Source: a virus (lineage: Duplodnaviria > Caudoviricetes). From it: a stretch of DNA of 63,174 nucleotides. A program made the translations under genes and the position numbers. Below, in pieces: positions 4,537 to 54,610 of this stretch (positions are counted from its first letter, which is position 1; each line of letters starts with the position of its first letter). The notes beneath the pieces were generated by a model, which had not been told where the DNA came from, made no database searches, and was given only the letters and a program-made list of their open reading frames with translations. Location: the IMG/VR virus record IMGVR_UViG_3300018405_000018, positions 1-63,174 of that record. One strand, written 5' to 3'.

Positions 4537-4540
4537 GATG

Positions 4541-11154: not shown

Positions 11155-14100
11155 TTACACTACTGTCCAGCCACCACTGAGGTAAATCTTCAGCGCAGAT
11201 GCTGTCGTATCGTACCATAGTTGGCCGATTGCTGGCGAAGTTGGAGCAGAGCCAGCAACATTAGCAATTGTGCCGCCAGGAGCACCAGCAGAACCAGTGA
11301 AGCCTGTTGAGCCAACCGCTGCGTCAACCCACTGTGAGCTGTCGCCATCGTTGAACCAAATCTTCAGACGACCGTTTGTGGTGTCAAACCACAGATCACC
11401 ATCAGCAGGCGACACAGGAGCAGTTGCACCTGTGAACGTTGACGCGTCAGCACCAGCAGAACCGGTGAAGCCAGCACTACCCGTGAAGCCAGCTCCTTGT
11501 GAACCGGTGAAACCGATCAAGCCTTGCGAGCCTGTGTAGCCTTGAACACCCTGGATACCTTGCAGACCTTGAACGCCCTGAGCACCCTGCGAACCAGTGT
11601 AGCCTTGGATGCCTTGTGGTCCCTGAGGGCCCTGAACACCTTGTTCACCTTGTGAACCTGTGAAGCCAGTTGGGCCAGCCACGGTAGAAGCAGAACCGGT
11701 AAAACCGATAGGACCCTGCGGGCCAGTTGCACCTTGAGGACCAGTGATACCAGTAGCACCTGATAGGTCGTTGACGTACGAGTACGATGTACCGTCCCAC
11801 AGATACAGACGGCTGTTTTCCGGATCGTTGACATTTGCTGTCTCAATGATAGCAAACTGACCTGCTGTGATGCCAGTAGGTGCTGTATCAGCGGTTAGAG
11901 CGGCAACAGAAGCGTACACTTTTGCAATCGTGAAGCCCATACCGGTGTCACCTTTGGAACCGGTAAAGCCAATCTCACCTTGTACACCCCGAACGCCTTG
12001 TGAACCTGTGAAGCCAGTAGCACCAACAGAACCTGTGAAGCCAGTAGCACCAACAGAACCTGTGAAGCCAACATCACCCTGAACGCCCTGAACGCCTTGT
12101 GAACCTGTGAAGCCAGTAGCACCAACAGAACCTGTGAAGCCAGTAGCACCTTGCGGGCCAGCGGCACCAGTGGAACCTGTTAGACCGATATCACCCCGAG
12201 AGCCTGTGTAGCCGAGTACACCCTGTGAACCAACATCGCCCTTAGAGCCTGTGTAGCCGATTGGGCCTTGAATCCCTTGTTCACCTTGAACGCCTTGAGG
12301 ACCGATTGGACCTCGAATCCCTTGTTCACCTTGTGAACCTGTGAAGCCAATAGAACCGGTGAAACCTGTTGGACCAGCAACTGTAGAAGCAGAACCTGTA
12401 AAGCCTGTTGGGCCTTGCGGACCTGTCAGACCAGCAGTACCTGACAGATCTGTTACGTATGAGTAAACAGAACCGTTCCACAGATATAACTTAGCATTGT
12501 CAGCGTCGTTGACGTTACCAGTTTCAATGATAGCAAACTGACCAGCAGAGATGCCAGTAGGTGTCGTATCAGCGGTTAGAGCGGCAACAGAAGCGTATGT
12601 CTTTGCGATTGTGAAGCCCATACCGGTGTCACCCTTGGAACCAGTAAAGCCTGTCGCACCTGCTACGCCAGTCGCACCTTGAGAGCCAGTGAAGCCGGTT
12701 GTGCCTTGTGAACCAGCCGGTCCAGCAGATCCTGTGAAACCTTGTTCGCCCTGAGAGCCTGTGAAACCGGTTGTGCCTGCAGCACCGGTTGCGCCTGTGT
12801 TGCCCTTAGAGCCTGTGTATCCGATAGGACCTTGAACGCCCTGGATACCCTGTACACCTTGAACACCCTGTACACCTTGAACGCCTTGTGAACCCGTGAA
12901 ACCGATAGAACCAGTGAAACCTGTTGGACCAGCAACAGTAGAAGCAGAACCAGTGAAACCAGCAGAACCAGTGAAACCTTGCAGACCTTGCTCACCAACG
13001 TCTCCCCTGGAGCCAGTGAAACCAGTTGTACCTTGTGGTCCTTGCAGGCCTTGAGAGCCTGTGAAACCAGTTGCGCCTTGCGGACCAGCGACGGTAGAAG
13101 CAGAACCTGTAAAGCCTGTATCACCCTTGGAGCCAGTATAACCAATCGCACCTTGTGGACCAGCAACGGTAGAAGCAGAACCAGCGTAACCGATCGGACC
13201 TCGCGGGCCAGTTAAGCCTGTTGTACCAGACAAATCTGTTACATATGTGTAGGCAGTGCCTGACCACAGATACAACTTAGCGTTGTCTGCGTCATTGACG
13301 TTGCCTGTTTCAATAACAGCAAACTGACCAGGAACGATTCCTGTCGGTGCTGTATCAGCGGTTAGAGCGGCAACAGAAGCGTACACTTTTGCAATCGTGA
13401 AGCCCATCCCTGTTTCGCCTTTGGAGCCAGTGAAGCCGATTGAACCAGTAAAACCAACAGAGCCTGTCAGACCAGTCGGTCCTTGAATACCTTGCTCGCC
13501 TTGTGAACCTGTGTATCCACGAGAGCCTGTAAAACCTTGCGCGCCTTCCGCACCGTTTGTACCGTTTGTACCAGCAGAGCCAGTGAAACCGGTTGCACCT
13601 TGAACGCCCTGTGAACCAGTGAAGCCGATTGGGCCTTGGGTTCCTTGAGGTCCTTGAATACCTTGTTCACCTTGAATGCCTTGAGCACCCTGCGGGCCCT
13701 GAATACCTTGAGAGCCAGTGAAACCGGTTGCACCTTGAGCACCCTGTGAGCCTGTGAAGCCAGCACCGGCTGGACCTATGGAACCTGTGAAACCAGTCTC
13801 ACCTTGGATGCCTTGAACACCCTGCGGGCCTTGAACACCCTGCGGGCCTTGTGAACCGGTGAAACCGATTGAACCAGTGAAGCCTGTTGGACCAGCAACA
13901 GTAGAAGCAGAACCAGTGAAACCAGTTGCACCCTGCGGGCCAGTGATGCCCTGTGTACCCGACAAATCTGTCACATACGAGTATGATGTGCCGTTCCACA
14001 GATATAACTTAGCGTTGTCTGCGTTTTGTGGATCACCTGTTTCAATAACAGCGAACTGGCCTGCAACAATCCCTGTAGGTGTCAGATCTGCTTCCAGAGC

Positions 14101-14463
14101 AGCAACAGATACGTACGACTTCGCGATGCTGAAGCCCATCCCTGTATCACCTTTGGAACCGGTGAAACCACGCTCGCCTTGCGCTCCGTTAGTGCCAGCT
14201 GAGCCTGTAAAGCCCTGAACGCCCTGAATACCTTGTGTACCCTGCGGGCCCTGTGGGCCTTGAACACCCTGTGGGCCTTGTGAACCGGTGAAACCAGCTA
14301 CACCCTGAATACCTTGCAGGCCCTGTGAACCGGTGAAACCGATTGAACCCTGATAACCTACTGTTGCGCCTGCCCAAGATGTGCCGTCCCATGTATAGAC
14401 TTTAGTGCCGATAGAGTAGATGTCACCAATCTGCGGACTAGCTGGAAAATTTAAAGCAGCCAT
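11155..14463 (-). CDS. Collagen-like fibre protein A (G[FY]TGS-rich, four globular interruptions)
   Basis: Long Gly-X-Y runs with ~48 G[FY]TGS by manual count and four copies of a ~60-aa IAK.YASVAALTAD module. N-terminal NFP.SP..GD.Y...W module and two C-terminal GDLWFD/GQLWYD modules. Confidence 0.85.
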   Translation of the reverse strand: MAALNFPASPQIGDIYSIGTKVYTWDGTSWAGATVGYQGSIGFTGSQGLQGIQGVAGFTGSQGPQGVQGPQGPQGTQGIQGVQGFTGSAGTNGAQGERGFTGSKGDTGMGFSIAKSYVSVAALEADLTPTGIVAGQFAVIETGDPQNADNAKLYLWNGTSYSYVTDLSGTQGITGPQGATGFTGSASTVAGPTGFTGSIGFTGSQGPQGVQGPQGVQGIQGETGFTGSIGPAGAGFTGSQGAQGATGFTGSQGIQGPQGAQGIQGEQGIQGPQGTQGPIGFTGSQGVQGATGFTGSAGTNGTNGAEGAQGFTGSRGYTGSQGEQGIQGPTGLTGSVGFTGSIGFTGSKGETGMGFTIAKVYASVAALTADTAPTGIVPGQFAVIETGNVNDADNAKLYLWSGTAYTYVTDLSGTTGLTGPRGPIGYAGSASTVAGPQGAIGYTGSKGDTGFTGSASTVAGPQGATGFTGSQGLQGPQGTTGFTGSRGDVGEQGLQGFTGSAGFTGSASTVAGPTGFTGSIGFTGSQGVQGVQGVQGVQGIQGVQGPIGYTGSKGNTGATGAAGTTGFTGSQGEQGFTGSAGPAGSQGTTGFTGSQGATGVAGATGFTGSKGDTGMGFTIAKTYASVAALTADTTPTGISAGQFAIIETGNVNDADNAKLYLWNGSVYSYVTDLSGTAGLTGPQGPTGFTGSASTVAGPTGFTGSIGFTGSQGEQGIRGPIGPQGVQGEQGIQGPIGYTGSKGDVGSQGVLGYTGSRGDIGLTGSTGAAGPQGATGFTGSVGATGFTGSQGVQGVQGDVGFTGSVGATGFTGSVGATGFTGSQGVRGVQGEIGFTGSKGDTGMGFTIAKVYASVAALTADTAPTGITAGQFAIIETANVNDPENSRLYLWDGTSYSYVNDLSGATGITGPQGATGPQGPIGFTGSASTVAGPTGFTGSQGEQGVQGPQGPQGIQGYTGSQGAQGVQGLQGIQGVQGYTGSQGLIGFTGSQGAGFTGSAGFTGSAGADASTFTGATAPVSPADGDLWFDTTNGRLKIWFNDGDSSQWVDAAVGSTGFTGSAGAPGGTIANVAGSAPTSPAIGQLWYDTTASALKIYLSGGWTVV

Positions 14464-14555: not shown

Positions 14556-16037
14556 TTAACCATTTAAGGTAGCAGCAAACACAAAATCAACGTTGTTCAA
14601 TGAAGTATCAGCAACAGACGGTCCTACCAGCGTTAGAAGATCGCCTTGTGCGACTACGATCTCTGTTGAGGCTGAAAAAGTTCCAGTCGTGCTGCCAGCA
14701 CCAAACGTTACAGTACCTAGCTGAACATTGTGTCTCCGGAATGAAAATACACGTTGTGCAGTAGGACCTGCATCCGCACGGGCTAACGAGCCTGCAAAGT
14801 TAGCCGGAATTGTGAACGAGCGTGGTGACAGAAACCGTAAAATCTGCTGGTTAGTTGTTGTAAGACCACCAATCACGCTAGCAAACACGTCGTAAGGCAC
14901 ACCTTGAATTGATCCTGCTGAGCCTGTGTAGCCGATCGAACCTGTGTAGCCAGTTAGACCAATTGTACCAATCGCTGCGTCTACCCATTGTGCACTGTCG
15001 CCGTCAACGTAGTAAATCTTCAGTTGGCCGTCAACCGATGACCACCACTGATCGCCGGGTGCTGGATTAGCAGGAGGAGCAACGTCAATAAACGTTACAC
15101 CACGTGACCCCGTAAAGCCGAGTTCACCTCGCGAGCCAGTAAAACCCACGCCTTGAGAGCCAGTGAAACCAACAGAACCTGTGAAACCTGTCGGGCCAGG
15201 AACTTCAGATGCAGACCCAGTGAAACCTATGGATCCAGTGAAACCTATGGATCCAGTGAAACCCACAGATCCAGTGAAACCCTCAACACCTTGAGATCCT
15301 GTAAAGCCCCGCGATCCTGTAAAGCCTGTTGGACCAGCAACCGTCGACGCAGAACCGGTGAAGCCGATATCACCGCGGGAGCCTGTGAACCCAGCGCCAG
15401 CAGAGCCAGTGAAACCGATTGAGCCTGTAAAACCTAGATTCCCTCGTGAACCAGTGAAACCGCGAGAACCGGCAAAACCTATTGCACCCTGCGAACCTGT
15501 AAAACCTATAACACCAGCAGAGCCTGTGAAGCCGACACTACCCGTGAAACCTACAGAACCAGTAAATCCTGACCCTCCACCACCGCCTGTTGCACTGATA
15601 GTTATCGTTTGTGGATCTGCTAGGTTGTCTGTTGTAATTGTTACGTTGTTACCTGCAACTAATCTCAACGTATCGAGTCCTACTGCAGTCAATGTTCCCT
15701 GCCCACCAACCTCAATAAACTTAAACGTTGAATTCATGCCAACCTTGACAGCACCGCCGCCGAGATCGGTTATGTCAAACCCTGAAGCTGTATCAAAGCG
15801 CAACGATGTTGTAGTAATGTCACCCGGAAGCACAGTCATCCCGTTGATCAAGCCGACAGTTAAAGCAGCTGACGAACCAGTAAACCCGATAACACCACGA
15901 GATCCAGTGTATCCAACAGGACCTTGGACGGTTCCAGTTGTTAGCGCCCAACCCTTGCCGTTGTATATCCACGATCTCCCACCAAGAGAGTAAACATCAC
16001 CTACAGATGGCGATGAGGGAAAATCAATAAAAGACAT
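14556..16037 (-). CDS. Collagen-like fibre protein B with C-terminal beta-sandwich (C1q/BclA-CTD-like) domain
   Basis: Start moved to ATG 16037 (MSFIDFPSSP, parallel to MAALNFPASP). ~23 G[FY]TGS. The ~110-aa all-beta C-terminal fold is inferred. Confidence 0.8.
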   Translation of the reverse strand: MSFIDFPSSPSVGDVYSLGGRSWIYNGKGWALTTGTVQGPVGYTGSRGVIGFTGSSAALTVGLINGMTVLPGDITTTSLRFDTASGFDITDLGGGAVKVGMNSTFKFIEVGGQGTLTAVGLDTLRLVAGNNVTITTDNLADPQTITISATGGGGGSGFTGSVGFTGSVGFTGSAGVIGFTGSQGAIGFAGSRGFTGSRGNLGFTGSIGFTGSAGAGFTGSRGDIGFTGSASTVAGPTGFTGSRGFTGSQGVEGFTGSVGFTGSIGFTGSIGFTGSASEVPGPTGFTGSVGFTGSQGVGFTGSRGELGFTGSRGVTFIDVAPPANPAPGDQWWSSVDGQLKIYYVDGDSAQWVDAAIGTIGLTGYTGSIGYTGSAGSIQGVPYDVFASVIGGLTTTNQQILRFLSPRSFTIPANFAGSLARADAGPTAQRVFSFRRHNVQLGTVTFGAGSTTGTFSASTEIVVAQGDLLTLVGPSVADTSLNNVDFVFAATLNG

Positions 16038-16076
16038 AGTTGGCAGCCCCAATCAAACGTGTTTGCAAGCTGCTAA

Positions 16077-18799: not shown

Positions 18800-21643
18800 T
18801 TATGTGTAAACCAAACAAATCACAGCATTGACTGCACCGCCTGCTTGCACAACGTCAACGGTCAGGAAATCTGTTATGGCCATAGGGACATTGACAGTAT
18901 AGTTGGGTGATCTGAACTCATTCGCTTGCACGCGTGGTAGTGTTGTCGGCCCGCCAAAAATAGACGTTCCGTTTACTTTTATATCAATGACAGTTGCTCT
19001 GTTTCCTGGTGTTCCAACGCTGAAATATACTTTTGTTAGAACGATAGGATCGTGAGGATACCACCGCAACGTTCCTGTGCTCTGCACAACAGGCCCGTGG
19101 ATGTTGTATTTTGACACTGTTGTTGCTGGCAATCCTTGAGATCCTGTATACCCCAATGTACCTGCATTGGCGAGTTCTACCCACTGATTGGTGTTGCCAT
19201 CAAACATGTAGAAATACTGAATGCCAGTGGTTGAGTCTATCCATATATCGTTCAACTCGGCACTCAAAGGAGGTTGATCAGCCAGATGCGTGGTTATGGA
19301 TCCTTTCGAGCCTGTAAACCCAGTAGCCCCTCTTGAACCAGTAAAGCCAAGATCACCACGTGAACCGGTAAAACCAAACGATCCTGTAAAACCAAACGAT
19401 CCTGTAAAACCAAACGATCCTTGTGAACCAACAAAGCCTGTTATACCTTGAGATCCTGTGAAGCCACGCGAACCAGTAAAGCCAGCAGGGCCTGGTTCGG
19501 TTGATGCCGAACCGGTGAAGCCAGCACTACCCGTGAAGCCAACAGAACCTGTAAAACCGATTGAACCAGTGAAGCCCAAATCACCACGGTCACCTCGTGA
19601 ACCGGTAAAGCCAGCGCCGGCAGAACCTGTGAAACCTGTTGAGCCAGTGAAGCCTTGAATACCTTGTTGTCCGGCAGAACCTGTAAAACCGACCCCGGCG
19701 GGGCCTTGCGAACCGGTGAAACCTGTATCACCCCGAGAGCCTGTGAAACCAGCGCCTGCTGAACCTGTGAAACCGACAGAACCAGTATATCCTAAATCTC
19801 CGCGCTCACCTTGTGAACCTGTGAAACCAGCGCCTGCTGAACCTGTGAAACCGACTGAGCCAGTGAAGCCTGTTGCTCCATCTTGACCGTTTATACCATC
19901 AGCACCACGTGAACCTGTGTAACCCTCCGATCCTGTGAAACCAACCAATCCGCGAGAACCAGTGAAGCCAATGTTACCTGGATTACCTTGAACACCCCGC
20001 GAACCAGTAAAACCGATGCCGCCCTGCGACCCTGTAAAACCTGTTGCACCAACTGAGCCTGTAAAGCCCGTATCACCACGAGGACCCTCTACACCTGCAC
20101 TACCAGTGTAACCGAATGTACCCTGCGAACCGGTGAAACCGATGTCACCACGGGGGCCCTCTACGCCTGCACTACCTGTATAACCAAATGCACCCTGTGA
20201 TCCTGTGAAACCTACTGGACCGATAATACCTTGGGCACCAGATAGATCGCTCGTATACACATATTGCGCACCATCCCACAAATAGATTCTGCTGTTTTCA
20301 GGATTGTTAACGTCGCCTGTCTCAATAATCGCAAACTGGCCTGCAACGATTCCAGTCGGTGCTGTGTCTGCAGTTAATGCAGCGACAGAAGCATACACTT
20401 TTACAACCGCAAATCCTAATCCAGTATCACCTTTGGAACCTGTGAAGCCAACTTCACCTTGTGAACCAGTAAAACCAATGGAGCCTGTGTAGCCGAGTTC
20501 ACCTCGAGATCCAGTGAAGCCTGTTGAACCTGTAAAACCAGGCAAGCCTTGATCGCCCTCAGGGCCTTGCACACCTGCACTACCTGTGAAACCGCGCGAA
20601 CCGGTAAAACCAACACCCTGCGAACCGGTGTAACCAGTCTCACCTTGAATACCTTGAACACCCTGCGAACCGGTGTAACCAGTCTCACCTTGAATACCTT
20701 GAACACCCCGCGAACCAGTGTAACCCGTGTCGCCTTTATCGCCTGTTTTTGCAAACGTAATAATGACGTCTTCACCGTCAACAAACGTCAACTGTCCTGA
20801 AAGAGCGCCAATAACAAACTCAAAATATCCGGAATGATCGATCACATTAGTGATTGTAAACATTGCGAAGTTCGTGTTGTCGAACTTTTTCGCAATGTGG
20901 AAATGACCTTTGATTGCACTTGTGCTTTGTGCAATCATCAAAAAGAAAGTTCTGGCGCTTGTGCCACCGTCGTCTGCATCATCGATGTACACACGTGTTG
21001 CTGATGTGATGTTTGGTGTGTCAAACCTAACTTTACCGACACCCGGATCTTCTGCTGTTGTCAGTGACGAATATGTGTAGTCGAAAGCCGCGCCACCAAA
21101 GTTACCGTCTTGTCCAGCGGAACCGGTGTATCCGGTTGAGCCTGGTGGCAGTGATGCGCTAATCGTTAGCGTTTGCGGCGATGCTGTGTTGTTTGTGGTG
21201 ATCGTGACGTTGTCGCCAGCAACAATCTTTAGTGTATCAAGACCGACAGCAGTTAGCGTCCCTTGTCCGTTCACTTGAATGAACTTGAACGTTGAGTTCA
21301 TCCCAACTTTAACCTCACCGTTTCCAAGATTTGTTAGGCCAAAACCAGAATCGGTGTCAAAGCGAAGCATGCTAACGTTTGCAATCTCGCCTGATTTTGC
21401 GTTTGCGCTGTTAATCAGACCGACAGAAACACTTCCGGATGGAACAGTTCCCCAACTGACGGTTGTTCCATCAGTTGTTAAAAACTTACCCCCATTGTTC
21501 GTCTGTAATGGCAATAAATTATTAGTCGCATCTTGCAGTGTTGTGGCGCCTGTACCACCGTGCTCAATAGGGACTACGTCACCCGTTCTAAATCGTGTGA
21601 GTGATCCGTCTTGGGAAAGTTTTAACGGTTTGATGTCTGCCAT
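18800..21643 (-). CDS. Collagen-like fibre protein C with C-terminal beta-sandwich domain
   Basis: ~44 G[FY]TGS, one YASVAALTAD module, an LRFDT.SGF...KVGMNSTFKFI module shared with protein B, and an all-beta C-terminal domain. Confidence 0.85.
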   Translation of the reverse strand: MADIKPLKLSQDGSLTRFRTGDVVPIEHGGTGATTLQDATNNLLPLQTNNGGKFLTTDGTTVSWGTVPSGSVSVGLINSANAKSGEIANVSMLRFDTDSGFGLTNLGNGEVKVGMNSTFKFIQVNGQGTLTAVGLDTLKIVAGDNVTITTNNTASPQTLTISASLPPGSTGYTGSAGQDGNFGGAAFDYTYSSLTTAEDPGVGKVRFDTPNITSATRVYIDDADDGGTSARTFFLMIAQSTSAIKGHFHIAKKFDNTNFAMFTITNVIDHSGYFEFVIGALSGQLTFVDGEDVIITFAKTGDKGDTGYTGSRGVQGIQGETGYTGSQGVQGIQGETGYTGSQGVGFTGSRGFTGSAGVQGPEGDQGLPGFTGSTGFTGSRGELGYTGSIGFTGSQGEVGFTGSKGDTGLGFAVVKVYASVAALTADTAPTGIVAGQFAIIETGDVNNPENSRIYLWDGAQYVYTSDLSGAQGIIGPVGFTGSQGAFGYTGSAGVEGPRGDIGFTGSQGTFGYTGSAGVEGPRGDTGFTGSVGATGFTGSQGGIGFTGSRGVQGNPGNIGFTGSRGLVGFTGSEGYTGSRGADGINGQDGATGFTGSVGFTGSAGAGFTGSQGERGDLGYTGSVGFTGSAGAGFTGSRGDTGFTGSQGPAGVGFTGSAGQQGIQGFTGSTGFTGSAGAGFTGSRGDRGDLGFTGSIGFTGSVGFTGSAGFTGSASTEPGPAGFTGSRGFTGSQGITGFVGSQGSFGFTGSFGFTGSFGFTGSRGDLGFTGSRGATGFTGSKGSITTHLADQPPLSAELNDIWIDSTTGIQYFYMFDGNTNQWVELANAGTLGYTGSQGLPATTVSKYNIHGPVVQSTGTLRWYPHDPIVLTKVYFSVGTPGNRATVIDIKVNGTSIFGGPTTLPRVQANEFRSPNYTVNVPMAITDFLTVDVVQAGGAVNAVICLVYT

Positions 21644-21678: not shown

Positions 21679-21685
21679 TATTTAT
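21679..21685 (-). promoter_or_regulatory. T4-type late promoter
   Basis: cATAAATA upstream of 21643. Confidence 0.7.
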
Positions 21686-21709
21686 GACTAACTGCTTGAT
21701 ATACATTTG

Positions 21710-21738
21710 TTGTCTTGGCAGAAAGTTTGTGGTACAAT
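21710..21738 (+). promoter_or_regulatory. Host sigma70-type promoter for the glycosyltransferase gene
   Basis: TTGTCT-17 nt-TACAAT with an extended -10 TG; AAGGAG SD precedes ATG 21767. Confidence 0.65.
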
Positions 21739-21766
21739 AACGCACGCTGTAGAACAAGGAGATTTT

Positions 21767-24700
21767 ATGACAAAAGTAGCACTGATTGACGTAATCGGGC
21801 TGACGTATGATGGAACAACGCTGTCCAAACGAGGTTTGGGTGGGTCTGAATCCGCTGTAATCTTGATGAGCAAAGAACTTGCTGCCCTCGGTTTTGATGT
21901 TACTGTTTTCAACAACTGTATTGACCGCGAAGCACAGGAAGGTGTGTATGACGGTGTCAAATACATTGACATCAACCGTTTGCGTCAGCCATACGATTAT
22001 CAGTTTGATGTTGTAATCTCGTCTCGCACCGTATTTCCATTTGTTCGCGAGCAAGATCAGCCTCATATTCAGTATGACTGTCGCCATTTCCGCAAACTTG
22101 CTGAAGCAGCGAAGTTAAAGATTGTCTGGCTGCACGATACGTTCTGTCAAGGTGACCACATTCTCGAGCATATGCTCGTCACCGGTGCGATTGACGAAAT
22201 CTTTACACTGTCCGACTTCCATACAACATATGTTGGCACATGCGATCACGGTCGCAAGCGTATGATGGAAGTGACGAAGCGAAAAATCTTTATGACAAGG
22301 AACGGCGCAATGCTGTATCCTGGTGAGGTGGATATTAAGGCAAAAGACCGCAATCTTTTCGTATATAACGCTTCCGTAACGAAGGGTATGATCCCTCTCG
22401 TCAATACAGTATGGCCAATCGTTAAACGGCAAATCCCTGACGCCAAACTCAAGGTGATTGGTGGTTACTACAGGTTCCGTGAAAATGCTGCTCCTGACGA
22501 GCAAGAGAAAACTTGGCGACAGATGGTTGCTGACCCAAAGTATGCTGATCTCGGGATTGAGTTCACTGGGGTTATCAAGCAAAGTGAGATTGCCGAGATC
22601 CTCAAACAGGCATCGTTTATGATCTATCCGCCAGCGTTTCCTGAAACGTTTGGCATTTCGTCGCTAGAAAGCCTGCTGTACAACACCCCGTTGATTACCA
22701 GCCGTTTTGGTGCTTTGGAAGAGACAGCGATTGATCAGGCAAGTTACTTTACAGACTATTCGGCAACACCAAATGGTCTGTACCCGTGGATTGATGAGAA
22801 TGCACAGTGTGTTCGGATCGCTGAGCTAGCCATCCATGCTTACCACAACCCATATCTCCACCAGCAGAAGATGTACTACTGCAACATCGTCAAGGGAATA
22901 CACGGGTGGGACAGTGTTGCTCTTCAGTGGAAGCAGCACTTATACAACAAACTTGGTCTGTATCTGTCTGCTGACGAGTATCGCAAGGTTAGTTATGTTA
23001 ATGCGCGTGTTCGCGAAGTATTTGGCCGTCGGTTTTCTAACCCTGACGATATCTACTATCCTCGCAACGCTCAACAACGGATTGTTGTTGTATCTCCTGT
23101 CTATAACGCAGAGAAATACGTCGAGAAGTGTATCCGTTCTGTTGCCTCACAGGATTACGACAACTGGGTTATGTATGTTGTAGACGATCGTTCTACTGAC
23201 ACGACTTTTGCAACTGCAAAGAAGGCAGCGCAGATTTACGGACGCGATCGTGTTCACGTTATCCGCAACGAAGAAAACAAAGGCGCGGTTTACAATCACG
23301 TGAGCACAATCCTGGAACATTGTAAACCAGACGACGTTGTGATGTTGATTGACGGCGATGACGCTCTTGTTGCGGACAACCAAATCTTCCACAAGTATAA
23401 CAACTTGTATGACGGAACAACGGACTTCACGTATGGTTCGTGCTGGTCTATGGTTGATAGCATTCCGCTTGTTGCTCAACCATATCCAGAGCACATTAAA
23501 CAAGCAAGAGCATATCGCCAGCACAAATTTAACTGGAATATGCCGTACACTCATCTGCGAACATTTAAGGCTTCGTTGATGTTAGATAACGTTGACTTGT
23601 CAATGTTCCAAGACAGCAACAGGAAGTGGTACAAGGCAGGTGGTGATGGTGCTGTGTTCTACGCTATGATCGAGCGCGCAAGACCGGAGGCTGTTAAGGC
23701 CATTCAGGATATCGTCTATCTGTACAATGACATCAACCCGCTAAATGATTACAAAATCAACGGCGGCGAGCAAACGAGAGCAGCAAATGAAATCCTGAAC
23801 AAAAAGCAAGGTATTGCTCCATCACAATCAGCATTGAAAACACAACTTACAACAACAAAGCCTATTATGAACAAAACGATTCTAATCGCTATTCCAACAA
23901 ACAAATATATTGAACCTGACACGTTCAAGTCAATCTACGACTTAGAGATCCCAGAAGGATACACAACAACGTTCCAGTATTTCTTCGGCTATCAAGTAGA
24001 CCAAATCCGCAACCTGATCGCTCACTGGGCAGAGAGGTTTGATTATCTGTTCGCTGTTGACAGCGATATGTCGTTCCCGCCTGATACGTTGAAGAAGCTG
24101 CTCGCTCACAACAAGGATGTTGTTTCTGGCCTGTACATCCAGCGGAAGCCGGGCCAACACATCCTTGAGATTTACCGGAACGGACGAAATGTTCCGTATC
24201 AGGACATTAAGGGTCTAGGGCTGGTTGAGGTTGACGGCTGTGGGTTCGGATGTGTTCTCGTCAACAGCGATGTCATCCGCAAGATTGGCTATCCGCAGTT
24301 TGTCTATAAATCAGCGCTTGACCACAAGGACACGTTCAGTGAAGACACGTACTTCTGTATGAAGGCAAAGCAACACGGTTTCCGCATTTGGGCAGACACA
24401 ACAATCCAGTGTAAGCATCACGGTAGTTCCGTATTTGAGGTTGACAACACGATTGAGCAGACGCCGGCAGACCGTCTCCGCGAACTCGGTCGTATCATGC
24501 TGTTGCCAAAGCCACACGTTGACCATCTGTTCTATATGGCAAGCTGCGGGATTAAACCAAAGGTGATTTATGACATCGGCAGTTGTGTTCTCCACTGGAC
24601 GAGTGTTGCTAAGCAAGTGTGGCCTGATGCTGAGTTCTGTCTGTGCGAGGCAATGCCAGAAGTAGAGCCAATCTACAACGAGAACGGGATCGTCAACTAC

Positions 24701-25141
24701 AACCTCGGCGTATTGTCTGATGTTGATGGCAAAGAACTGACATTCTACCAGAATACCACTCACCCTGGTGGTAACTCATACTACAAAGAGAACTCGGAAG
24801 TCAATCCTGTTGCTGATACGTATTTTAATGAAAAGCATGCTCGCAAGGTCAAAGCACGGACGCTGGATGCTGTTGTTGCTGAGAAGAAATGGCCGTTGCC
24901 TGATCTAATCAAGATGGATGTCCAAGGTGCTGAAATGGACGTGCTAAAAGGCGCCACAAACACGTTACAACAATGCGAACATCTGATAATGGAGCTCCAG
25001 AATGTTGAGTACAACAAAGGCGCTCCACTGAAAGATACTGTGATCGACTATCTGAAGACGATTGGTTTTGAGCCAGTTGGCGGAGGATTATTCTGTGCAA
25101 ACGGCGTAGACGGAGACTATCACTTCCGTAGAGTGAAATAA
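21767..25141 (+). CDS. Four-domain fusion: GT-B (GT4-like) + GT2 + second GT-A glycosyltransferase + FkbM-family methyltransferase
   Basis: GT-B: GLGGSESAV...LAALGFDVTVF and ETFGISSLE (EX7E). GT2: VVSPVYNAEKYVEKCIRSV..Q.Y, VVDDRSTD, IDGDD. Second GT-A: ILIAIPT, VDSDM, GCGFGCVLV, SEDTYFC. FkbM: IYDIGS, TLD, DLIKMDVQGAEMDVLKG. Start moved to 21767 on SD evidence. Confidence 0.9.
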   Translation: MTKVALIDVIGLTYDGTTLSKRGLGGSESAVILMSKELAALGFDVTVFNNCIDREAQEGVYDGVKYIDINRLRQPYDYQFDVVISSRTVFPFVREQDQPHIQYDCRHFRKLAEAAKLKIVWLHDTFCQGDHILEHMLVTGAIDEIFTLSDFHTTYVGTCDHGRKRMMEVTKRKIFMTRNGAMLYPGEVDIKAKDRNLFVYNASVTKGMIPLVNTVWPIVKRQIPDAKLKVIGGYYRFRENAAPDEQEKTWRQMVADPKYADLGIEFTGVIKQSEIAEILKQASFMIYPPAFPETFGISSLESLLYNTPLITSRFGALEETAIDQASYFTDYSATPNGLYPWIDENAQCVRIAELAIHAYHNPYLHQQKMYYCNIVKGIHGWDSVALQWKQHLYNKLGLYLSADEYRKVSYVNARVREVFGRRFSNPDDIYYPRNAQQRIVVVSPVYNAEKYVEKCIRSVASQDYDNWVMYVVDDRSTDTTFATAKKAAQIYGRDRVHVIRNEENKGAVYNHVSTILEHCKPDDVVMLIDGDDALVADNQIFHKYNNLYDGTTDFTYGSCWSMVDSIPLVAQPYPEHIKQARAYRQHKFNWNMPYTHLRTFKASLMLDNVDLSMFQDSNRKWYKAGGDGAVFYAMIERARPEAVKAIQDIVYLYNDINPLNDYKINGGEQTRAANEILNKKQGIAPSQSALKTQLTTTKPIMNKTILIAIPTNKYIEPDTFKSIYDLEIPEGYTTTFQYFFGYQVDQIRNLIAHWAERFDYLFAVDSDMSFPPDTLKKLLAHNKDVVSGLYIQRKPGQHILEIYRNGRNVPYQDIKGLGLVEVDGCGFGCVLVNSDVIRKIGYPQFVYKSALDHKDTFSEDTYFCMKAKQHGFRIWADTTIQCKHHGSSVFEVDNTIEQTPADRLRELGRIMLLPKPHVDHLFYMASCGIKPKVIYDIGSCVLHWTSVAKQVWPDAEFCLCEAMPEVEPIYNENGIVNYNLGVLSDVDGKELTFYQNTTHPGGNSYYKENSEVNPVADTYFNEKHARKVKARTLDAVVAEKKWPLPDLIKMDVQGAEMDVLKGATNTLQQCEHLIMELQNVEYNKGAPLKDTVIDYLKTIGFEPVGGGLFCANGVDGDYHFRRVK

Positions 25142-25188: not shown

Positions 25189-27372
25189 TTACAGTTGGAT
25201 TGGCATACCAATTTGGATTGCCAGAGATGTTGCAGAGAGGGCAATGCCAACTGGAGCAACGAACTGACCTTCGGTTGTCGGCACTGTTGTTGTAACAGCG
25301 CCAGCAACTGTCGGAGACAGGAAGTAGCGAGCACCTGCTGTCAGACCAGTCAGACCAGTCAGAGCACCTGCTGTAGCAACCTTGCCGGTCACGCCAACTG
25401 ATGTAACAAAGCCGATTACCTTCACAGCACCAGCCGCGTTAGCTTGTGCTCTAGCAACACCACCTGTGCCTGTTGCGTACACAGCATCACCAACAGCCAG
25501 ACCAGTTGTGTCAGCTGTGATTGTCGATGCAGCAGTGTCGATAGCAACGGTACCAGCAGCTGTCAGACGACCATCAGCACCAACGGTGAATGTTGGGATT
25601 GCTGTTGCGGAACCGTATGAACCTGCTGTAACTGTTGTGTTAGCGATAGAAACAACACCTGCTGTAGCTGTCAGACCTGTACCGATCTGTACAACACCTT
25701 TGGATGTTGCTGTTGCGTCGTCGACAGTGATTGTCAGTGTGTTGTTGCCGCCAACGGTGGTGCGAACACCTTGCGCGTTGTCGCCCAGGAAAGCAAACGT
25801 TTCACCAAGAGCCAACTGGTCCGTGGTTGTACCATCACCCAGAGTAACGCTGGTGCTTGCCAACATTGCGTTGGTGATAGCACCAGTACCGATGAACAGG
25901 CCATCAGCGTCTGTAGACAGACCACCAGAAGCTTTCAGTTTCAGAGCAAGAGTAGATGTTTCTGAAACTTGGTCAGGGGTGAAGTGCAGGCCACCAGTTG
26001 CAGCCAGTTCCACGTCCAGACGGTTACCTGTCTTAGACAGACCCAGACCAGCTGTAATCTGACCAGTACCTGTGAACTGAACCCAAGCTGTACCAGAGAA
26101 TACGTAACCGGTTTCTGTCGAGCTGTCGAACAGGGCGAAGCCATCAGTAGGCGTTACACCAGCACCCCAGCTCGAACCGTCGGAAGTGTAGATCCGGTTG
26201 TCTGTTGTGTTGACAAAACGTGTACCAGCTGCAGGAACTATGACAGGAAGAACAGCACCGATACCGGCCACTGGTTCTTGCCAGCTCAGGCCACCAGCCA
26301 GCGAGTCAACATAACCCTTAGTAGCAGCGTGCAGAGCAGTTGTAGGAGCAGCGTTCAATGTCAGGAAGCCTGTCATTGTATCGCCAGTTTTGCTTACCTT
26401 ACCGTCAATGTTTATCTGCAAATCTCTGTCAGCGGCTGCACGAGTAGATGCTTCAGCTGTGATGTTACCTTGCAGAGTTGTGTCGGCCTGACCGCGCGCG
26501 GTTGCTTCATTGCTGATAGCAGATGCGTTTGCGGCTACTGCTGCAGCCAACAGAACGTCAGCGTTGTTCAGAGATGTAGCAGCACTGATGTATGCGCTTC
26601 CAACATTTGCTACGTATGCGCCAGTATCAGACAGACCAGCACCAGCTTGTGTTGCGTCCAACTCACCTTGCAGAGCACCGACAGCGTTTGTACGAGCGGT
26701 TACTTCGTTGTTGATGGATGTTTGCAGAGCACCGTCAGCAGTCGTGCGAGCTGTTTCTTCAGCTTTCAGAGCTGTGTCGAGAGTTGTCAGGGCAGAACGG
26801 ATTGTCAGAGTGCCTGCTGACAGACCAGCCAAATAGTTTGAACCTGTGAATGCTGTTAGTGCACCTTCTGTTGTTAGACCAACAGAAGCTTCGATTGCGT
26901 CGATTTGCGACTGCAGATCTGTGCTACCAGTGGCGGCGGCGGCGGCAACGGCGTTGATAGCGCCAACAATAGATGTAGCACCTGCAGCAGAGTTAGTGAA
27001 TGTAACACCTGTCAGAGTGCCGTCAAGAGCTGTACCAATAGACAGCTGTGTAGCGTCCAACTCACCCTGCAGAGCACCGACAGCGCTTGTACGAGCGGTT
27101 GCTTCAGCGTTGATGGCTGTTTGCAGTGCTGTGTCAGCGCTTGCGCGGGTGGAAGCTTCTGAAGCTAGGTCAGCATCGAGTTCGTTGATAGCAGCAACGA
27201 GGCTTGTCTTAGCTGTTGTTGTCAGCAGCGTCAGGTCACCAGTACGTGACGTAACGAACGGTTGGGTAGCGGCTAAATCACCATTAACCAGACCAAATAC
27301 GGTATCTCCGCTTTGCAGCTGTTGCAGTTCCCCGGTTAACGGGTTTAATACGAGAACTTTTCTAGTAGCCAT
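25189..27372 (-). CDS. Coiled-coil/beta fibre protein (whisker- or head-fibre-like)
   Basis: N-terminal half has heptad repeats ([16 protein letters not shown] twice). Also KTGDTMTG.L...HAATKGYVD and [16 protein letters not shown] fibre motifs, and a C-terminal [13 protein letters not shown]...RYFLS domain. Confidence 0.75.
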
Positions 27373-29387: not shown

Positions 29388-32300
29388 TTACATCAACGAA
29401 TAACGTGTAATCCACGGCGATGCTGCAGTAAAGCTACCTGATTGGCCCATAGTTACCACACCTCCTGTGTTCGTTACAGTGGTGCCTGTAATAGCTTGAA
29501 CGCCGCCGGCACCATTATATCTGGTGATTACAGGTACCATCATTGTTGTCAGGCTTGCGTCTCCGTTTGGATCGGTGTATCGAACGAAGAAAGCGGTGCC
29601 TGACGGAATGAAAGAGGCTGGTGTGTGTATTGTTATTGTCTGTAGTTTAAACGTGGCTGGAATATTATCAAACCTGACTGTATCTCCGAACACACCCGCT
29701 TGATCAAGACGAACGGTAATCGCGTCGATGTCTGTTTGTGATCCGTAACCAACAAGATGGATGTTTGCAGTTTGATTCCCTGCAGCGTTCTGTATCGTCA
29801 TTTTACGTAGCACGACTGAAGCTCCGCCTGATCCGCCACCACCAGGAACGTTAACTGTAACAGCCCCGCCGCTATTTGTTGCAGTAACACCCGCACCCGT
29901 GAAGTTGATTGACGTAGCGCCTGTCGTCAACGAAGTGCCTTCGTCCAGAACAGCCAGAGCGCTTCCGCCGCCTCCACCAGGAATGTTGACAATCACACCA
30001 TCTGTTGACGATGTTGCTGTAACGCCAGCACCTGTGAAGTTTATGAACGTTGGAGCGGTGTGAACAACAGTTCCTTCGTCTTGAACGGCAAAGTTTGTTG
30101 TTCCAGACGAGCCGGTGAAGCCTTGAATACCCTGCGATCCAGTGAAGCCAGTCGCACCAGCAGGACCTGCAGAACCTGCAGAACCTGTAAAACCAGTTGG
30201 GCCAGCAGGTCCTGCAACCGTAGAGGTGGAGCCCGTGAAACCAGCACTGCCTGTGAAACCTACACCAGCACTGCCTGTGAAACCTTGTGAGCCATTGAAA
30301 CCTTGAATACCCTGTTGACCAGCGCTACCTGTAAAGCCGGCACCAGCACTACCTGTGAAACCAACTGAACCAGTGAAACCGTTCGTGCCTGCACTACCAG
30401 TAAAGCCGGCTGCACCTGCGCTACCAGTGAAGCCTGCACCAGCAGAACCAGTGAAACCAACTGAGCCGGCTGGTCCTGCAACGCCTGCACTACCAGTGAA
30501 ACCAGTGGCGCCAGCGGAGCCTGCAGGACCTGCGCTACCAGTGAAGCCTGTGGCGCCAGCAGAACCAGTAAAGCCTTGAATGCCTTGTTGACCTGCCGAA
30601 CCCGTGAAGCCAGCGCCGGCACTGCCTGTGAAACCAACTGAACCGGCAGGACCAGCTGCTCCTGCAGAACCTGTAAAGCCGGTTGCACCGGTGGAACCTG
30701 TAAAGCCGGTTGCACCAGTCGTTCCAGCTGCTCCTGCAGAACCAGTGAAGCCCGTAGCACCAGCACTACCTGTAAAGCCAGCACCAGCACTACCCGTAAA
30801 GCCAGTAGGTCCAGCAACTGTTGATGCAGAACCAGTGAAACCTGTTGCACCTTGAGGTCCTTGTGGACCAGTCACACCTTGTGTTCCAGAAAGGTCGGTT
30901 ACATATGAGTAAGCGGTGCCATTCCACAGATACAGTTTAGCATTATCTACATCGTTGACGTTGCCTGTTTCAATAATCGCAAACTGGCCTGATGCAATGC
31001 CAGTAGGCGCTGTGTCTGCAGTTAATGCAGCGACAGAAGCGTATACTTTTGCAATCGTGAATCCAATACCAGTGTCGCCTTTGGAACCTGTGAAACCGAT
31101 TGCACCTTGTGAGCCCGTAAAACCTACAGAACCTGCCGAGCCTGTGAAGCCTGTGCCTGCCGAGCCTGTGAAGCCTTGAATACCTGCAGTTCCTGCAGAA
31201 CCAGTGAAACCAGCACTGCCGGTGAAACCTGCTGTGCCTGATGGGCCTGCTGGTCCAGTGGACCCAGTAAAGCCTATTGCACCAGAAATACCTTGTGAAC
31301 CTGTGAAACCTGCATCACCACGCGAACCAGTGAAGCCTGCACCAGCAGAACCAGTGAAGCCTTGCGCACCAGGAGCGCCGTTTGTTCCAGCGCTTCCTGT
31401 GAATCCTGTGTCTCCACGAGAGCCTGTGAACCCAGCGCCAGCGGACCCAGTGAAACCGATTGAACCTGTGAATCCTGTTGCGCCTTGAGCGCCTGCCGAG
31501 CCTGTGAAACCAAATCCTGACGGTCCTTGCGAGCCAGTAAAACCACGCTCACCGGACAGACCTTGTGCACCATCTGCTCCAGCAGAACCGGTGAAGCCTT
31601 GGGATCCTGTGTAGCCTTGAGAGCCCGGACCAGTCACAACAGAAGCAATCTGTGCGTCAACGTATGCTTTATTAACAACTGATGTTGGCAATAATGGTGC
31701 ATCAACAATATCAATCTTCAATCCAGCAGGAACAAAAATGTCACCTGTCGTAACACCTGCCAGTTCAGTAATCCCACCACCTGTTCCTGGAGCACCACCG
31801 AGCATTGTTGTTGATGCTCGCATCATAATGGCGTGACGATCGATCACTGTTGCGACGGGTACTGGCGGAATCGCTGGTGTTAATGTTAAGGCACCGTATT
31901 CATCAACGTATAAAGGAGCGTTGATTTCTGCACCAGCAGCAAGCCAGTCCCAAGCACCATTGTAGATAACACCATCCAACGCAACGTTAATGAAATCGCC
32001 CGCTGCAGCATCAAACTCAATGATACCGTACGTCACCTGGGTAATGTTATGCGGGCTTGCAGCGATAACTTTGTTGTAGTCGGAGAACTGAACAATCGTG
32101 TGAGACGGCATTGATTCTTCTGCTTCTGCACGAAGTTGTACCGATCCGAGCTTAACTTGTGTGCTGTTAGCAATCCCTGTAACAGCATAGTCTTCTGTTG
32201 TGAAGTATGTGCCGTCTTTCTTCTTTAGAACGCCACCAAAGTTGTCATAGATCAGTGCACCCGCGTGAGTTGGACGGATGATACCAACTTGTGTGCCAGT

Positions 32301-32750
32301 AAACACGCCAACGTTGTTGCTCATACTGACAAACACGCCACCCTGCGTCAGTTGCGCTGCGAACACGCGAATCACACGCTGCCATCTGTTAGCAGCCGCA
32401 ACATACACTTTCATCTGGCCAGACGATGTGTCAAACCAATGTTGGTCATTTGCTGCGTTTGCTGGTGGGGTTGGGCCTTCAACAGGCTCTAACAACGTGT
32501 GTCCGAACGAACGAGCACCAGTGACAAGGTGCATATCCCAGTACAGCCAGTAGTTTGTACCAGAAACAAAAGGACCAGCCCACGCATTTGCTACAGTTTG
32601 TTTTTCAGAAAGCAAATAATCAGACGATCCGTCAGCAAATGCAACCAATACGGTGTCGTTAGGCGGGACTTGCAAAGATACTGCTGATCCAGAACGAGAT
32701 AAAAAGTTCGCTGGTGCACGGACCAAGCCTTGTCTAAAGTCGATTAACAT
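29388..32750 (-). CDS. Collagen-like fibre protein D
   Basis: N-terminal ~310 aa paralogous to 32807..36811; ~41 G[FY]TGS; one YASVAALTAD module; two DEGT...INFTGAGVTAT repeats; distinct C-terminal domain. Confidence 0.85.
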   Translation of the reverse strand: MLIDFRQGLVRAPANFLSRSGSAVSLQVPPNDTVLVAFADGSSDYLLSEKQTVANAWAGPFVSGTNYWLYWDMHLVTGARSFGHTLLEPVEGPTPPANAANDQHWFDTSSGQMKVYVAAANRWQRVIRVFAAQLTQGGVFVSMSNNVGVFTGTQVGIIRPTHAGALIYDNFGGVLKKKDGTYFTTEDYAVTGIANSTQVKLGSVQLRAEAEESMPSHTIVQFSDYNKVIAASPHNITQVTYGIIEFDAAAGDFINVALDGVIYNGAWDWLAAGAEINAPLYVDEYGALTLTPAIPPVPVATVIDRHAIMMRASTTMLGGAPGTGGGITELAGVTTGDIFVPAGLKIDIVDAPLLPTSVVNKAYVDAQIASVVTGPGSQGYTGSQGFTGSAGADGAQGLSGERGFTGSQGPSGFGFTGSAGAQGATGFTGSIGFTGSAGAGFTGSRGDTGFTGSAGTNGAPGAQGFTGSAGAGFTGSRGDAGFTGSQGISGAIGFTGSTGPAGPSGTAGFTGSAGFTGSAGTAGIQGFTGSAGTGFTGSAGSVGFTGSQGAIGFTGSKGDTGIGFTIAKVYASVAALTADTAPTGIASGQFAIIETGNVNDVDNAKLYLWNGTAYSYVTDLSGTQGVTGPQGPQGATGFTGSASTVAGPTGFTGSAGAGFTGSAGATGFTGSAGAAGTTGATGFTGSTGATGFTGSAGAAGPAGSVGFTGSAGAGFTGSAGQQGIQGFTGSAGATGFTGSAGPAGSAGATGFTGSAGVAGPAGSVGFTGSAGAGFTGSAGAAGFTGSAGTNGFTGSVGFTGSAGAGFTGSAGQQGIQGFNGSQGFTGSAGVGFTGSAGFTGSTSTVAGPAGPTGFTGSAGSAGPAGATGFTGSQGIQGFTGSSGTTNFAVQDEGTVVHTAPTFINFTGAGVTATSSTDGVIVNIPGGGGGSALAVLDEGTSLTTGATSINFTGAGVTATNSGGAVTVNVPGGGGSGGASVVLRKMTIQNAAGNQTANIHLVGYGSQTDIDAITVRLDQAGVFGDTVRFDNIPATFKLQTITIHTPASFIPSGTAFFVRYTDPNGDASLTTMMVPVITRYNGAGGVQAITGTTVTNTGGVVTMGQSGSFTAASPWITRYSLM

Positions 32751-38234: not shown

Positions 38235-38750
38235 TTATTTATTCTCCAGGTTGTGATTACTGACAATCACCCGATCAAACTCGCCAGCAGCAGGGCGCTC
38301 AAGGCGACCGTACTGGTCGCGAACAGCATCTGCTTTGACATTCTTATCACCACGTGTTTGCTGACGAGCAATGATCGTCTCAAGATCAACAGGCATCTCA
38401 ATGCCAACAACACGGTATCCGGCACGGCGAGCAATGTCAATGTAGAACTTCCTCCGCTTGACAGTCAGGTTCGTGTTGTCAACGTAGATGTCGTTGCCTG
38501 ACTTGATCATCTGGCGGAACACAGCATATGCTTTGTTGTTGAACTCTTTGTCTTCTGTCGACAGCCTAAATGCCCGCGCGTAGTTTTCTTGATCGTACCA
38601 TTGATGGCGGAGATCGTCAAACGAGAATGAATCAATCTGACGGTCCGGATTTTCTGCGCGCAGTTTTTTCAGGAACGTAGATTTGCCTGAACCACTAGCT
38701 CCTATCGGAATCCAGATTGTGGGATGCATATTCAATTCAGATAGTTTCAT
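38235..38750 (-). CDS. P-loop kinase (AAA_33 / polynucleotide-kinase-like)
   Basis: Walker A GASGSGKS, SFDDLR, YVDNTNL, R..R lid motif. Confidence 0.8.
   Translation of the reverse strand: MKLSELNMHPTIWIPIGASGSGKSTFLKKLRAENPDRQIDSFSFDDLRHQWYDQENYARAFRLSTEDKEFNNKAYAVFRQMIKSGNDIYVDNTNLTVKRRKFYIDIARRAGYRVVGIEMPVDLETIIARQQTRGDKNVKADAVRDQYGRLERPAAGEFDRVIVSNHNLENK
38236..38242 (-). promoter_or_regulatory. Late promoter embedded in the kinase 3' end (AAT AAA TAA)
   Basis: ATAAATA ~25 nt upstream of ATG 38211. Confidence 0.6.
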
Positions 38751-54603: not shown

Positions 54604-54610
54604 TATTTAT
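54604..54610 (-). promoter_or_regulatory. T4-type late promoter
   Basis: cATAAATA upstream of 54579. Confidence 0.7.

Follow-up and report, generated by a model that had tools for sequence, protein, structure and literature searches.

We describe a fused four-module enzyme gene from a T4-like myovirus, located on the + strand at positions 21767..25141 (stop codon included) of the IMG/VR virus record IMGVR_UViG_3300018405_000018, whose 63,174 nucleotides constitute the window analyzed here. The gene encodes a 1124-amino acid (aa) protein (P0001) in which a GT-B glycosyltransferase (GT), a GT2 glycosyltransferase, a small GT-A glycosyltransferase related to the viral protein A197 and an FkbM-family methyltransferase (MT) dependent on S-adenosylmethionine (SAM) follow one another in a single polypeptide. 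With this composition, we consider it highly probable that the enzyme performs multi-step glycan synthesis with O-methylation. The reading that we favor, at a level of confidence slightly short of even, is that this soluble enzyme decorates fibres of the phage's own virion with a methylated glycan, and the collagen-like fibres encoded around it are put forward tentatively as the acceptor in particular. Donors, order of steps, role of the methyl group, acceptor and every enzymatic activity are predictions throughout.

Multi-domain viral or bacterial enzymes combining glycosyltransferases with a methyltransferase are a known kind. The four-module composition, the place of the gene in phage fibre modules and the module-swapping family to which it belongs are without description in the open-access literature searched, which yielded no account of such a phage enzyme. 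To our knowledge, only few systems exist in which virions are glycosylated by phage-encoded enzymes. If the collagen-like fibres are indeed its acceptor, no fibre-glycosylation system would have been described before it in T4-like or jumbo phages, and the enzyme would be the phage equivalent of BclA glycosylation and of the chlorovirus protein A064R.

Architecture of the enzyme

The reading frame is open without interruption on the + strand from either a TTG at 21707 or an ATG at 21767 through to 25141. The ATG is the likely start of the gene, because a Shine-Dalgarno sequence (AAGGAG, 21756..21761, +) ends 5 nt before it and because homologues begin at the same residue, which is shared by 33 aligned sequences in the alignment of full-length relatives. 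The fused form is not an assembly artefact, since the identical 1124-aa protein is recorded from four contigs and 99%-identical copies of the same length are present in other assemblies. A contig of 196 kb is among the records with the identical protein. The phage collection searched contained no near-identical DNA, and none of its records covers at least 80% of the enzyme protein.

Searches of the protein against Pfam, PHROGs and NCBIfam profiles assign four modules in fixed order to GT-B, GT2, phrog_1574 and FkbM families, with predicted activities to match. The initial annotation, made from the sequence letters, had placed four domains at ~21767-22990, 23080-23800, 23867-24450 and 24550-25138, and the module boundaries derived here fall within a few tens of bases of these estimates. 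It had also read their catalytic motifs as intact, and the expected catalytic residues are indeed invariant across an alignment of 34 full-length homologues spanning 45-73% identity, to which the statements of invariance below refer.

Module 1 (aa 1-432; 21767..23062, +) is a predicted retaining, GT4-type GT-B enzyme. The profile PF00534 matches aa 207-325 with an E-value of 2.1e-11 (44.1 bits, against a cut-off of 26.4), and the N-terminal half gives a weak GT4 match to PF13439 (0.0024, aa 25-129). The AlphaFold structure predicted for aa 1-432, with a predicted local distance difference test (pLDDT) score of 90.9 and a predicted template modeling (pTM) score of 0.90, folds into two Rossmann-like halves. 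Its Foldseek matches include MshA, sucrose-phosphate synthase, ManT, GlgM, BshA, glycogen synthase, PimA/B' and WaaG. The best 50 rows range in E-value from 4.6e-15 to 3.6e-11, and no single match stands out. The segment G23-L-G-G-S-E28 is invariant, as are E293 and E301, a pair (E293-x7-E301) that we take to be the EX7E motif of the GT-B C-terminal half and that is also invariant in 14 GT-B sequences.

Module 2 (aa 436-679; 23072..23803, +) is a GT-A enzyme of family GT2, an inverting family by CAZy convention, and matches PF00535 over aa 441-574 (5.2e-23, 82.2 bits against a cut-off of 23.3). Its profile matches in the PDB comprise TagF, GalT1, TarS and heparosan synthase, at 3e-13 to 7e-11, and its residues N447, D474 and D529-G-D531-D532, the last providing the DXD motif, are invariant. 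Module 3 (aa 701-897; 23867..24457, +) matches phrog_1574 over aa 757-892 (3.3e-20), with a faint Anp1 match besides. Predicted over aa 696-900 from a 14-sequence alignment, its structure reaches a pLDDT of 92.2 and a pTM of 0.89. The DXD motif D765-S-D767 and the segment S858-E-D860 are invariant in the full-length homologues; three of the 14 aligned module-3 sequences carry DYD or DHD in place of DSD.

Module 4 (aa ~930-1124; 24554..25138, +) is a predicted FkbM-family methyltransferase, matching PF05050 at 9.7e-18 (65.3 bits against a cut-off of 22.7) across profile positions 9-172 of 173, and TIGR01444 with 68.4 bits against a cut-off of 37.7. Within its motifs D936-I-G938 and K-M-D-V-Q-G-A-E (1049-1056), the residues D936, G938, K1049, D1051, Q1053, G1054 and E1056 are invariant. 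Sequence search at E ≤ 0.01 found no solved structure for this module.

The highest 19-residue Kyte-Doolittle mean in the protein is 1.51. The usual threshold for a transmembrane segment is 1.6, and no membrane helix is evident on this basis, in agreement with the soluble enzyme first proposed. Sugar-nucleotide synthesis genes, which the initial annotation had likewise reported to be absent from the window, were not found among the window open reading frames (ORFs) scanned with PHROGs and Pfam.

Fused and split forms of the gene

Between modules 2 and 3 lies a linker rich in Thr, Ser and Gln (aa 680-700, KQGIAPSQSALKTQLTTTKPI; 23804..23866, +), the least conserved stretch of the protein, with a mean identity of 11% against 60-70% for the modules. 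The linker ends at an internal Met (23867) that had been interpreted as a fusion seam, and relatives such as the locus L003 split the gene exactly there. In L003 the gene takes the form of two ORFs overlapping by 4 nt, a stop/start overlap at the position of the linker: the first, of 675 aa, aligns to aa 11-679, and the second, which starts MKKILIAIPT, aligns to aa 703 to 1122. Met 23867 is thus a real seam. The search for split homologues that had been suggested along with it retrieved split relatives at every module junction.

The family was surveyed over 111 loci, grouped into 57 clusters at 90% identity of module 3, of which 47 have a gene set uncut by a contig end. All four modules are fused in 25 of these 47 clusters. 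The division seen at the seam, with GT-B-GT2 in one gene and module 3-MT in the next, occurs in seven clusters, and in three more GT-B-GT2 is followed by a gene joining module 3 to something else. GT-B-GT2-module 3 with a different or absent tail accounts for five clusters, and two clusters have an additional, separate MT gene after the complete four-module fusion. The remaining arrangements are each represented by one cluster: GT-B-GT2-module 3 with a separate MT; GT-B-GT2-module 3 followed by a separate module 3-MT gene; GT-B, GT2 and module 3-MT as three genes; GT2-module 3-MT; and a set with two GT-Bs. The order of the modules is constant throughout, and stand-alone proteins corresponding to every single module are present in the representative library. 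In some relatives the last module is replaced or joined by a GT25 (L025, L007), a Methyltransf_24 domain (L019) or a second GT2 (L020, L030).

Of the 7998 candidates scored in a word-index search, 1873 proteins reached E ≤ 0.001. Among the best 120 of these 1873, 30 have the size of the window enzyme (1093-1166 aa) and the others measure 1327-1809 aa, the longer forms carrying a second GT-B, a second FkbM or Methyltransf_24 instead of FkbM, and some lacking a methyltransferase. A full HMMER scan yielded 367 representatives at E ≤ 1e-30, and IMG/VR contains at least 586 confirmed module-3 stretches. Members occur on contigs of up to 393 kb, and the related loci range from 26 to 49% in guanine-plus-cytosine (GC) content. 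The family is thus very common in uncultured phages, and its natural series of fused and split forms lends itself to work on the assembly of multi-step glycan enzymes, besides constituting a source of soluble and possibly coupled glycosyl- and methyltransferases for glycoengineering.

A candidate viral glycosyltransferase as nearest solved relative of module 3

Among solved structures, the nearest to module 3 is A197 of Sulfolobus turreted icosahedral virus (STIV; PDB 2c0n), with a VIA-align Z of 20.7, a root-mean-square deviation of 2.2, 168 of 191 residues aligned and 23% identity; the Foldseek E-value is 3e-12, and the next entries in the VIA-align ranking have Z of 18.5 and below. A197 is also found by module-3 sequence profiles, at 5.8e-5 and 2.4e-4. 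In the alignment, the VDSD of module 3 falls on LDED of A197, and S-E-D(860) on G-E-D at chain index 149-151, a count that may be offset from the residue numbering. A survey of archaeal virus structures assigns a DXD motif and a proposed catalytic base, Asp151, to A197 and puts the protein forward as a strong, uncharacterized candidate for coat-protein glycosylation (PMC4187194). Both proteins are viral, but A197 belongs to an archaeal virus, exists as a separate protein of 197 aa and is uncharacterized in its own activity.

After A197, the matches of module 3 are human LH3 (Z 18.0-18.5), yeast Mnn9 (17.2), human COLGALT1 (16.5) and Mimivirus R699 (16.4), and the collagen-modifying enzymes among them grade into TarP, RmlT and other GT-As, with Z of 15 falling to 14 at rank 50. 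Giant-virus PLOD-like proteins also match module 3 in the viral fold library. Among UniProt-derived viral models, a 1119-aa protein of an 'uncultured Caudovirales phage', which bears an automatic name only, is 60% identical to the window enzyme in module 3.

Genomic context in the window and in relatives

The window comprises the structural module of a T4-like, jumbo-type myovirus, with genes for terminase, sheath, gp15-like tail sheath stabilizer, portal, prohead protease and major capsid protein, the last being 56-59% identical to those of the Xanthomonas and Stenotrophomonas jumbo phages XacN1, Xoo-sp13, CM1 and RAS14. The enzyme gene alone is on the + strand here, amid a long series of fibre genes on the - strand. 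Its upstream neighbor, transcribed divergently, encodes a 947-aa collagen-like tail fibre (18800..21643, -) that contains 44 G[FYLIV]TGS motifs and has Thr in 36% of its Y positions, and its convergent downstream neighbor encodes a 727-aa repetitive protein rich in Ala and Thr (25189..27372, -) that has no family match and is, from its position alone, probably another fibre. G-[F/Y]-T-G-S hexads likewise make up the collagen-like fibres encoded by two other genes, at 11155-14463 and 14556-16052 (-); there is a fourth such gene, with 41 G[FYLIV]TGS motifs, at 29388..32750 (-).

All four collagen-like fibres are built of G-[F/Y]-T-G-S-x hexads, with Ser (22-38%) or Phe/Tyr in the X positions and Thr in 35-40% of the Y positions, while Pro and Lys are scarce. 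In the order of the window, they contain 50, 23, 44 and 41 G[FYLIV]TGS motifs and 7, 0, 3 and 1 Lys residues at Y positions. These hexads are found again in the fibres that related phages encode. The window also encodes other fibres on the - strand (7810-11058, 3958-4725 and 4939-5790), one with a C-terminal Peptidase_S74 intramolecular chaperone and two with gp53-like C-terminal domains.

In the surveyed family, collagen-like neighbors were called by a strict rule requiring at least 20 G-x-y triplets in runs of at least five, with neither x nor y being Gly. By this rule, the immediate upstream neighbor is collagen-like in 14 of the 43 clusters that have one, against 14 of 161 other ORFs of at least 200 aa in the same loci (odds ratio 5.1, Fisher p 2e-4, with clusters treated as independent though they are related). 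Nine of 17 tested non-collagen upstream neighbors match PHROGs labeled tail, baseplate or virion structural, and the more general rule is therefore that the enzyme lies beside a large fibre-type gene. In G001 (291 kb), the closest large relative, the enzyme gene is flanked by fibre genes on both sides, as it is in the window.

Homologues of single modules also occur next to virion genes. A Methanobacteriales virus (L034; BK063679.1) encodes a module-3 homologue (phrog_1574, 35.6% identity) at 5001-5600 and, two genes after it, a collagen-like tail protein (6268-7140) of GDT and GAT triplets, with Thr at Y. In a small myovirus, a module-3 homologue is located between capsid and tail genes, and in a podovirus a GT-B homologue directly follows the capsid gene, beside further glycosyltransferases.

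The motif ATAAATA, characteristic of T4-type late promoters, occurs 27 times in the window against 3.4 expected (for instance at 2487-2493 and 54604-54610), with 25 occurrences on the - strand just before structural genes, one of them belonging to the fibre gene divergent from the enzyme (21679..21685, -; motif scan). Given this enrichment upstream of structural genes, the phage seems to use T4-style late promoters. Among the related loci, 20 of the 28 with enough upstream sequence carry ATAAATA on the enzyme strand within 100 nt of the gene, often inside a palindrome (TATTTATAAATA) common to the enzyme gene and the divergent fibre gene. A good sigma-70-like site is also present at many of the related loci with an upstream ATAAATA.

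Proposed function and acceptor

According to the reading that we favor, host nucleotide sugars and SAM would be used by the soluble enzyme in the cytoplasm. Its three glycosyltransferase modules would generate a glycan through at least three sugar-adding steps, and the FkbM module would add O-methyl groups, the methyl group possibly capping the chain as in A064R and WsaE. The product first suggested for the enzyme, a short oligosaccharide with an O-methyl cap, is plausible by analogy with these two working precedents; alternatively, the product may be a terminated polymer or a chain methylated at internal sugars. The acceptors would be virion fibres made in the same cell, the collagen-like ones first, whose G-[F/Y]-T-G-S-x hexads place Thr or Ser in nearly all triplets. 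A glycan linked to these residues would stiffen or shield the fibre.

Own fibres are favored as acceptor because of the position of the gene, the late-promoter motif in relatives and the identification of A197 as the nearest relative of module 3, to which the archaeal-virus case, the conservation of the enzyme across a range of GC contents and the density of Thr and Ser in the fibre repeats can be added. Enzyme identity stays at 45-73% across phage loci of 26-49% GC, a pattern that fits an acceptor traveling with the phage. In the most specific version of the proposal, large environmental myoviruses would carry a modular assembly line that attaches a glycan to Thr and Ser of the G-x-T/G-S-x triplets in their collagen-like tail fibres by O-glycosylation and adds methyl groups to it; this version is less likely than fibre modification in general and on balance improbable. 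Were it true, it would constitute a hydroxyproline-free way of stiffening and shielding a viral collagen triple helix, and the swapping of glycosyltransferase and methyltransferase modules between phages would diversify the sugar coat of their fibres. A sugar coat on the fibres would bear on host range, on how well virions withstand proteases and antibodies, and on the stabilization of collagen-like helices without hydroxyproline.

Several observations weigh against this reading. No ATAAATA was found on the + strand before the window enzyme gene, which is preceded only by a sigma-70-like promoter candidate (TTGTCT-17-TACAAT with a TG before the -10, 21710..21738, +), a weak site of a type no commoner in the window than chance (7 sites, against 5.9 expected in shuffles), and the late-motif count in the 28 relatives is a raw count from AT-rich loci without a shuffle baseline. 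The association with collagen-like neighbors resides in the divergent arrangement (13 of 18 clusters) and is nearly absent from the co-directional one (1 of 25); because the link holds in one arrangement only and the clusters are related, it may reflect inherited synteny, which would explain much of the signal. A looser count, based on three consecutive G-x-x and reaching 24 of 43 clusters, was dropped, as eight co-directional matches proved to be glycine-rich proteins and not collagen. In L027, L030 and L031, the gene adjoins DNA polymerase B, RfaE-like kinase/cytidylyltransferase, epimerase and GT25 genes and not fibres.

Furthermore, four of five other phages with similar collagen-like fibres contain no homologue of any module, and the fifth, S-CAM7, has a distant module-3 homologue only, ~167 kb from its collagen genes. 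A strict coupling between the enzyme and collagen-like fibres is thereby ruled out, and the enzyme must be dispensable for such fibres. An assignment of module 3 as a collagen glycosyltransferase, suggestive as it is next to collagen-like fibres, was also rejected, since its matches cover residues 293-536 of LH3 and 45-312 of COLGALT1, which we take to be accessory, non-catalytic domains, and form a continuum with generic GT-As. Collagen glycosyltransferases (COLGALT1, LH3, L230, R699) act on hydroxylysine, whereas the scanned window ORFs include no hydroxylase or oxygenase and the window fibres, as counted above, have little Lys at Y. Among these enzymes, Mimivirus L230 glucosylates viral collagen-like proteins (PMC9614988).

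The main alternative, remodeling of the host surface, is a possibility that we regard as serious although on balance unlikely. In this scenario, the enzyme would extend and methyl-terminate a lipid-linked host glycan (O-antigen, capsule or S-layer precursor) at the inner face of the membrane, and the host exporter would display an altered surface, blocking superinfection or changing adsorption. ABC-transporter-dependent glycan assembly as a rule employs soluble multi-module glycosyltransferases that have a methyl-type terminator, as illustrated by WsaE (PMC2943079), WbdD (PMC3482155) and Klebsiella O7 (PMC11231755), and glycosyltransferases in the fibre-region islands of pelagimyophages have been read as modifiers of the host O-chain (PMC7029224), a precedent that also counts against fibres as the target. 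The best named matches of the GT2 module, TuaG, EpsE, WcaA, TagF and TarS, are cell-envelope glycan enzymes; relatives bear RfaE-like, epimerase/dehydratase and GT25 'lipopolysaccharide' genes near the enzyme; and the window copy has the sigma-70-like site without the late motif.

Set against this evidence, the window ORFs scanned with PHROGs and Pfam include no Wzm/Wzt, initiating phosphoglycosyltransferase or ligase, although the host could supply them. The modeled regions (aa 1-432 and 696-900) contain no long coiled-coil ruler of the kind described for such systems (PMC11231755), the linkers being of 21 and 32 residues. A single lipid-linked acceptor common to the hosts of phages ranging from 26 to 49% GC is hard to envisage for so conserved an enzyme, and it is fibre genes that the enzyme gene accompanies.

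A free or small-molecule product, such as a soluble methylated oligo- or polysaccharide or a glycosylated metabolite in the infected cell, appears very improbable. The acceptors are small or soluble for several fold matches of the GT-B module (MshA, BshA, sucrose-phosphate synthase and ManT, the last from the methylmannose polysaccharide pathway), and in some relatives the gene lies beside radical SAM, desaturase-like and TauD enzymes of small-molecule type. The GT-B matches are however generic for GT4/GT5, the first 20 ranks differing by no more than tenfold in E-value, the benefit of such a product to the phage is not evident, and the position of the gene in the fibre module is conserved.

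T4-like phages glucosylate their DNA, and synthesis of a DNA glycan would have a parallel in this hypermodification. G001 harbors a second, divergent thymidylate-synthase-family gene (L115:7584-8564) ~10 kb from the enzyme, adjoining helicase, thymidylate-kinase-like and guanylate-kinase-like genes, which hints at a modified pyrimidine, and the enzyme gene adjoins DNA polymerase B in L027 and L031; DNA glycans made by virus-encoded glycosyltransferases are the subject of 2024 work cited in PMC12619734. This possibility is nonetheless the least likely of those considered, with very little probability assigned to it, given that no nucleotide-modifying gene is present among the window ORFs scanned, that in both the window and G001 the gene sits between fibre genes and outside the nucleotide module, that a thymidylate-synthase-family gene occurs in two of five large relatives and a second copy in one (four of the five records being incomplete), and that no T4 DNA glucosyltransferase appears among the listed fold matches of the modeled modules 1 and 3. 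Should the target turn out to be the host surface or DNA and not the fibres, the gene would still encode an unusually large phage 'auxiliary' enzyme of defined architecture.

Comparison with known systems

The closest parallel in domain content, compared by description, is A064R of Paramecium bursaria chlorella virus 1 (PBCV-1), which unites two glycosyltransferase domains and a C-terminal SAM methyltransferase in one polypeptide and finishes the capsid glycan (PMC9614988). It 2-O-methylates the last sugar, and the order of its domains is the order of the reactions (PMC9614988). Like the window enzyme, A064R thus joins several glycosyltransferase domains to a methyltransferase in a viral polypeptide, but it is a 638-aa protein with three domains (GT-A, a new GT family and methyltransferase) that acts on the capsid N-glycan of a eukaryotic virus. 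The window enzyme, in contrast, has four modules, GT-B and GT2 among them, and is the product of a bacteriophage gene, with an acceptor proposed from genomic context.

Among cellular enzymes, WsaE from the S-layer glycan pathway of Geobacillus stearothermophilus is a soluble, trifunctional protein with two rhamnosyltransferase domains and a methyltransferase, the latter making a 2-O-methyl cap thought to end chain growth (PMC2943079). It differs from the window enzyme in the N-terminal position of its methyltransferase and in its substrate, a lipid-linked glycan transferred to protein after export through Wzm/Wzt. Glycosyltransferase modules accompanied by a methyl-type terminator, fused or split, are likewise found in WbdA/WbdD of Escherichia coli O9a and in ORF6 of Klebsiella O7 (PMC11231755, PMC3482155). 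These O-antigen terminators involve a coiled-coil ruler and a kinase, Wzm/Wzt and glycans linked to undecaprenyl diphosphate, none of which was found for the window enzyme.

With regard to the proposed acceptor, the window fibres resemble BclA, a collagen-like fibre with a short, methyl-ended O-glycan; Thr makes up 35-40% of their Y positions, and their role as acceptor is conjectural. The repeats of BclA are GPT, with Thr as the attachment site. The collagen-like region of this Bacillus exosporium protein is densely glycosylated with GalNAc-Rha3-anthrose (PMC10050317), anthrose being a 2-O-methylated sugar (PMC6222408). The enzymes of BclA glycosylation are not known to be relatives of the window enzyme. 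In mycobacteriophages, phage-encoded glycosyltransferases decorate virion proteins, at the C-termini of capsid and tail-tube subunits (PMC12619734). Those glycosyltransferases are encoded by separate small genes, in contrast with the fused gene of the window.

Additional observations

Downstream of the enzyme gene, L003, L006, L014, L032 and other loci contain clusters encoding radical SAM proteins, fatty-acid-desaturase-like membrane proteins, TauD and 2-oxoglutarate-Fe(II) oxygenases, together with Asp/Arg hydroxylase, SufE and extra methyltransferases. In L030, a 1558-aa protein with RCC1-like repeats (L030:131-4807) is encoded upstream of the enzyme gene, along with GT25, epimerase and RfaE-like genes.

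Elsewhere in the window, a 145-aa ORF inside the tail-gene block (42443-42880, -) has a TnsA-like endonuclease N-terminal domain (1.3e-17) and may be a mobile nuclease, and a 171-aa P-loop kinase of AAA_33/zeta-toxin-like type (38235-38750, -) adjoins the terminase gene. Sequence near-identical to the segment 20800-25400 (66-76% of sampled words) is present in runs labeled as freshwater, wastewater, sediment, soil and aquatic metagenomes, with no RNA data set among the runs listed. Since these runs come from several studies, the phage lineage appears to be widespread.

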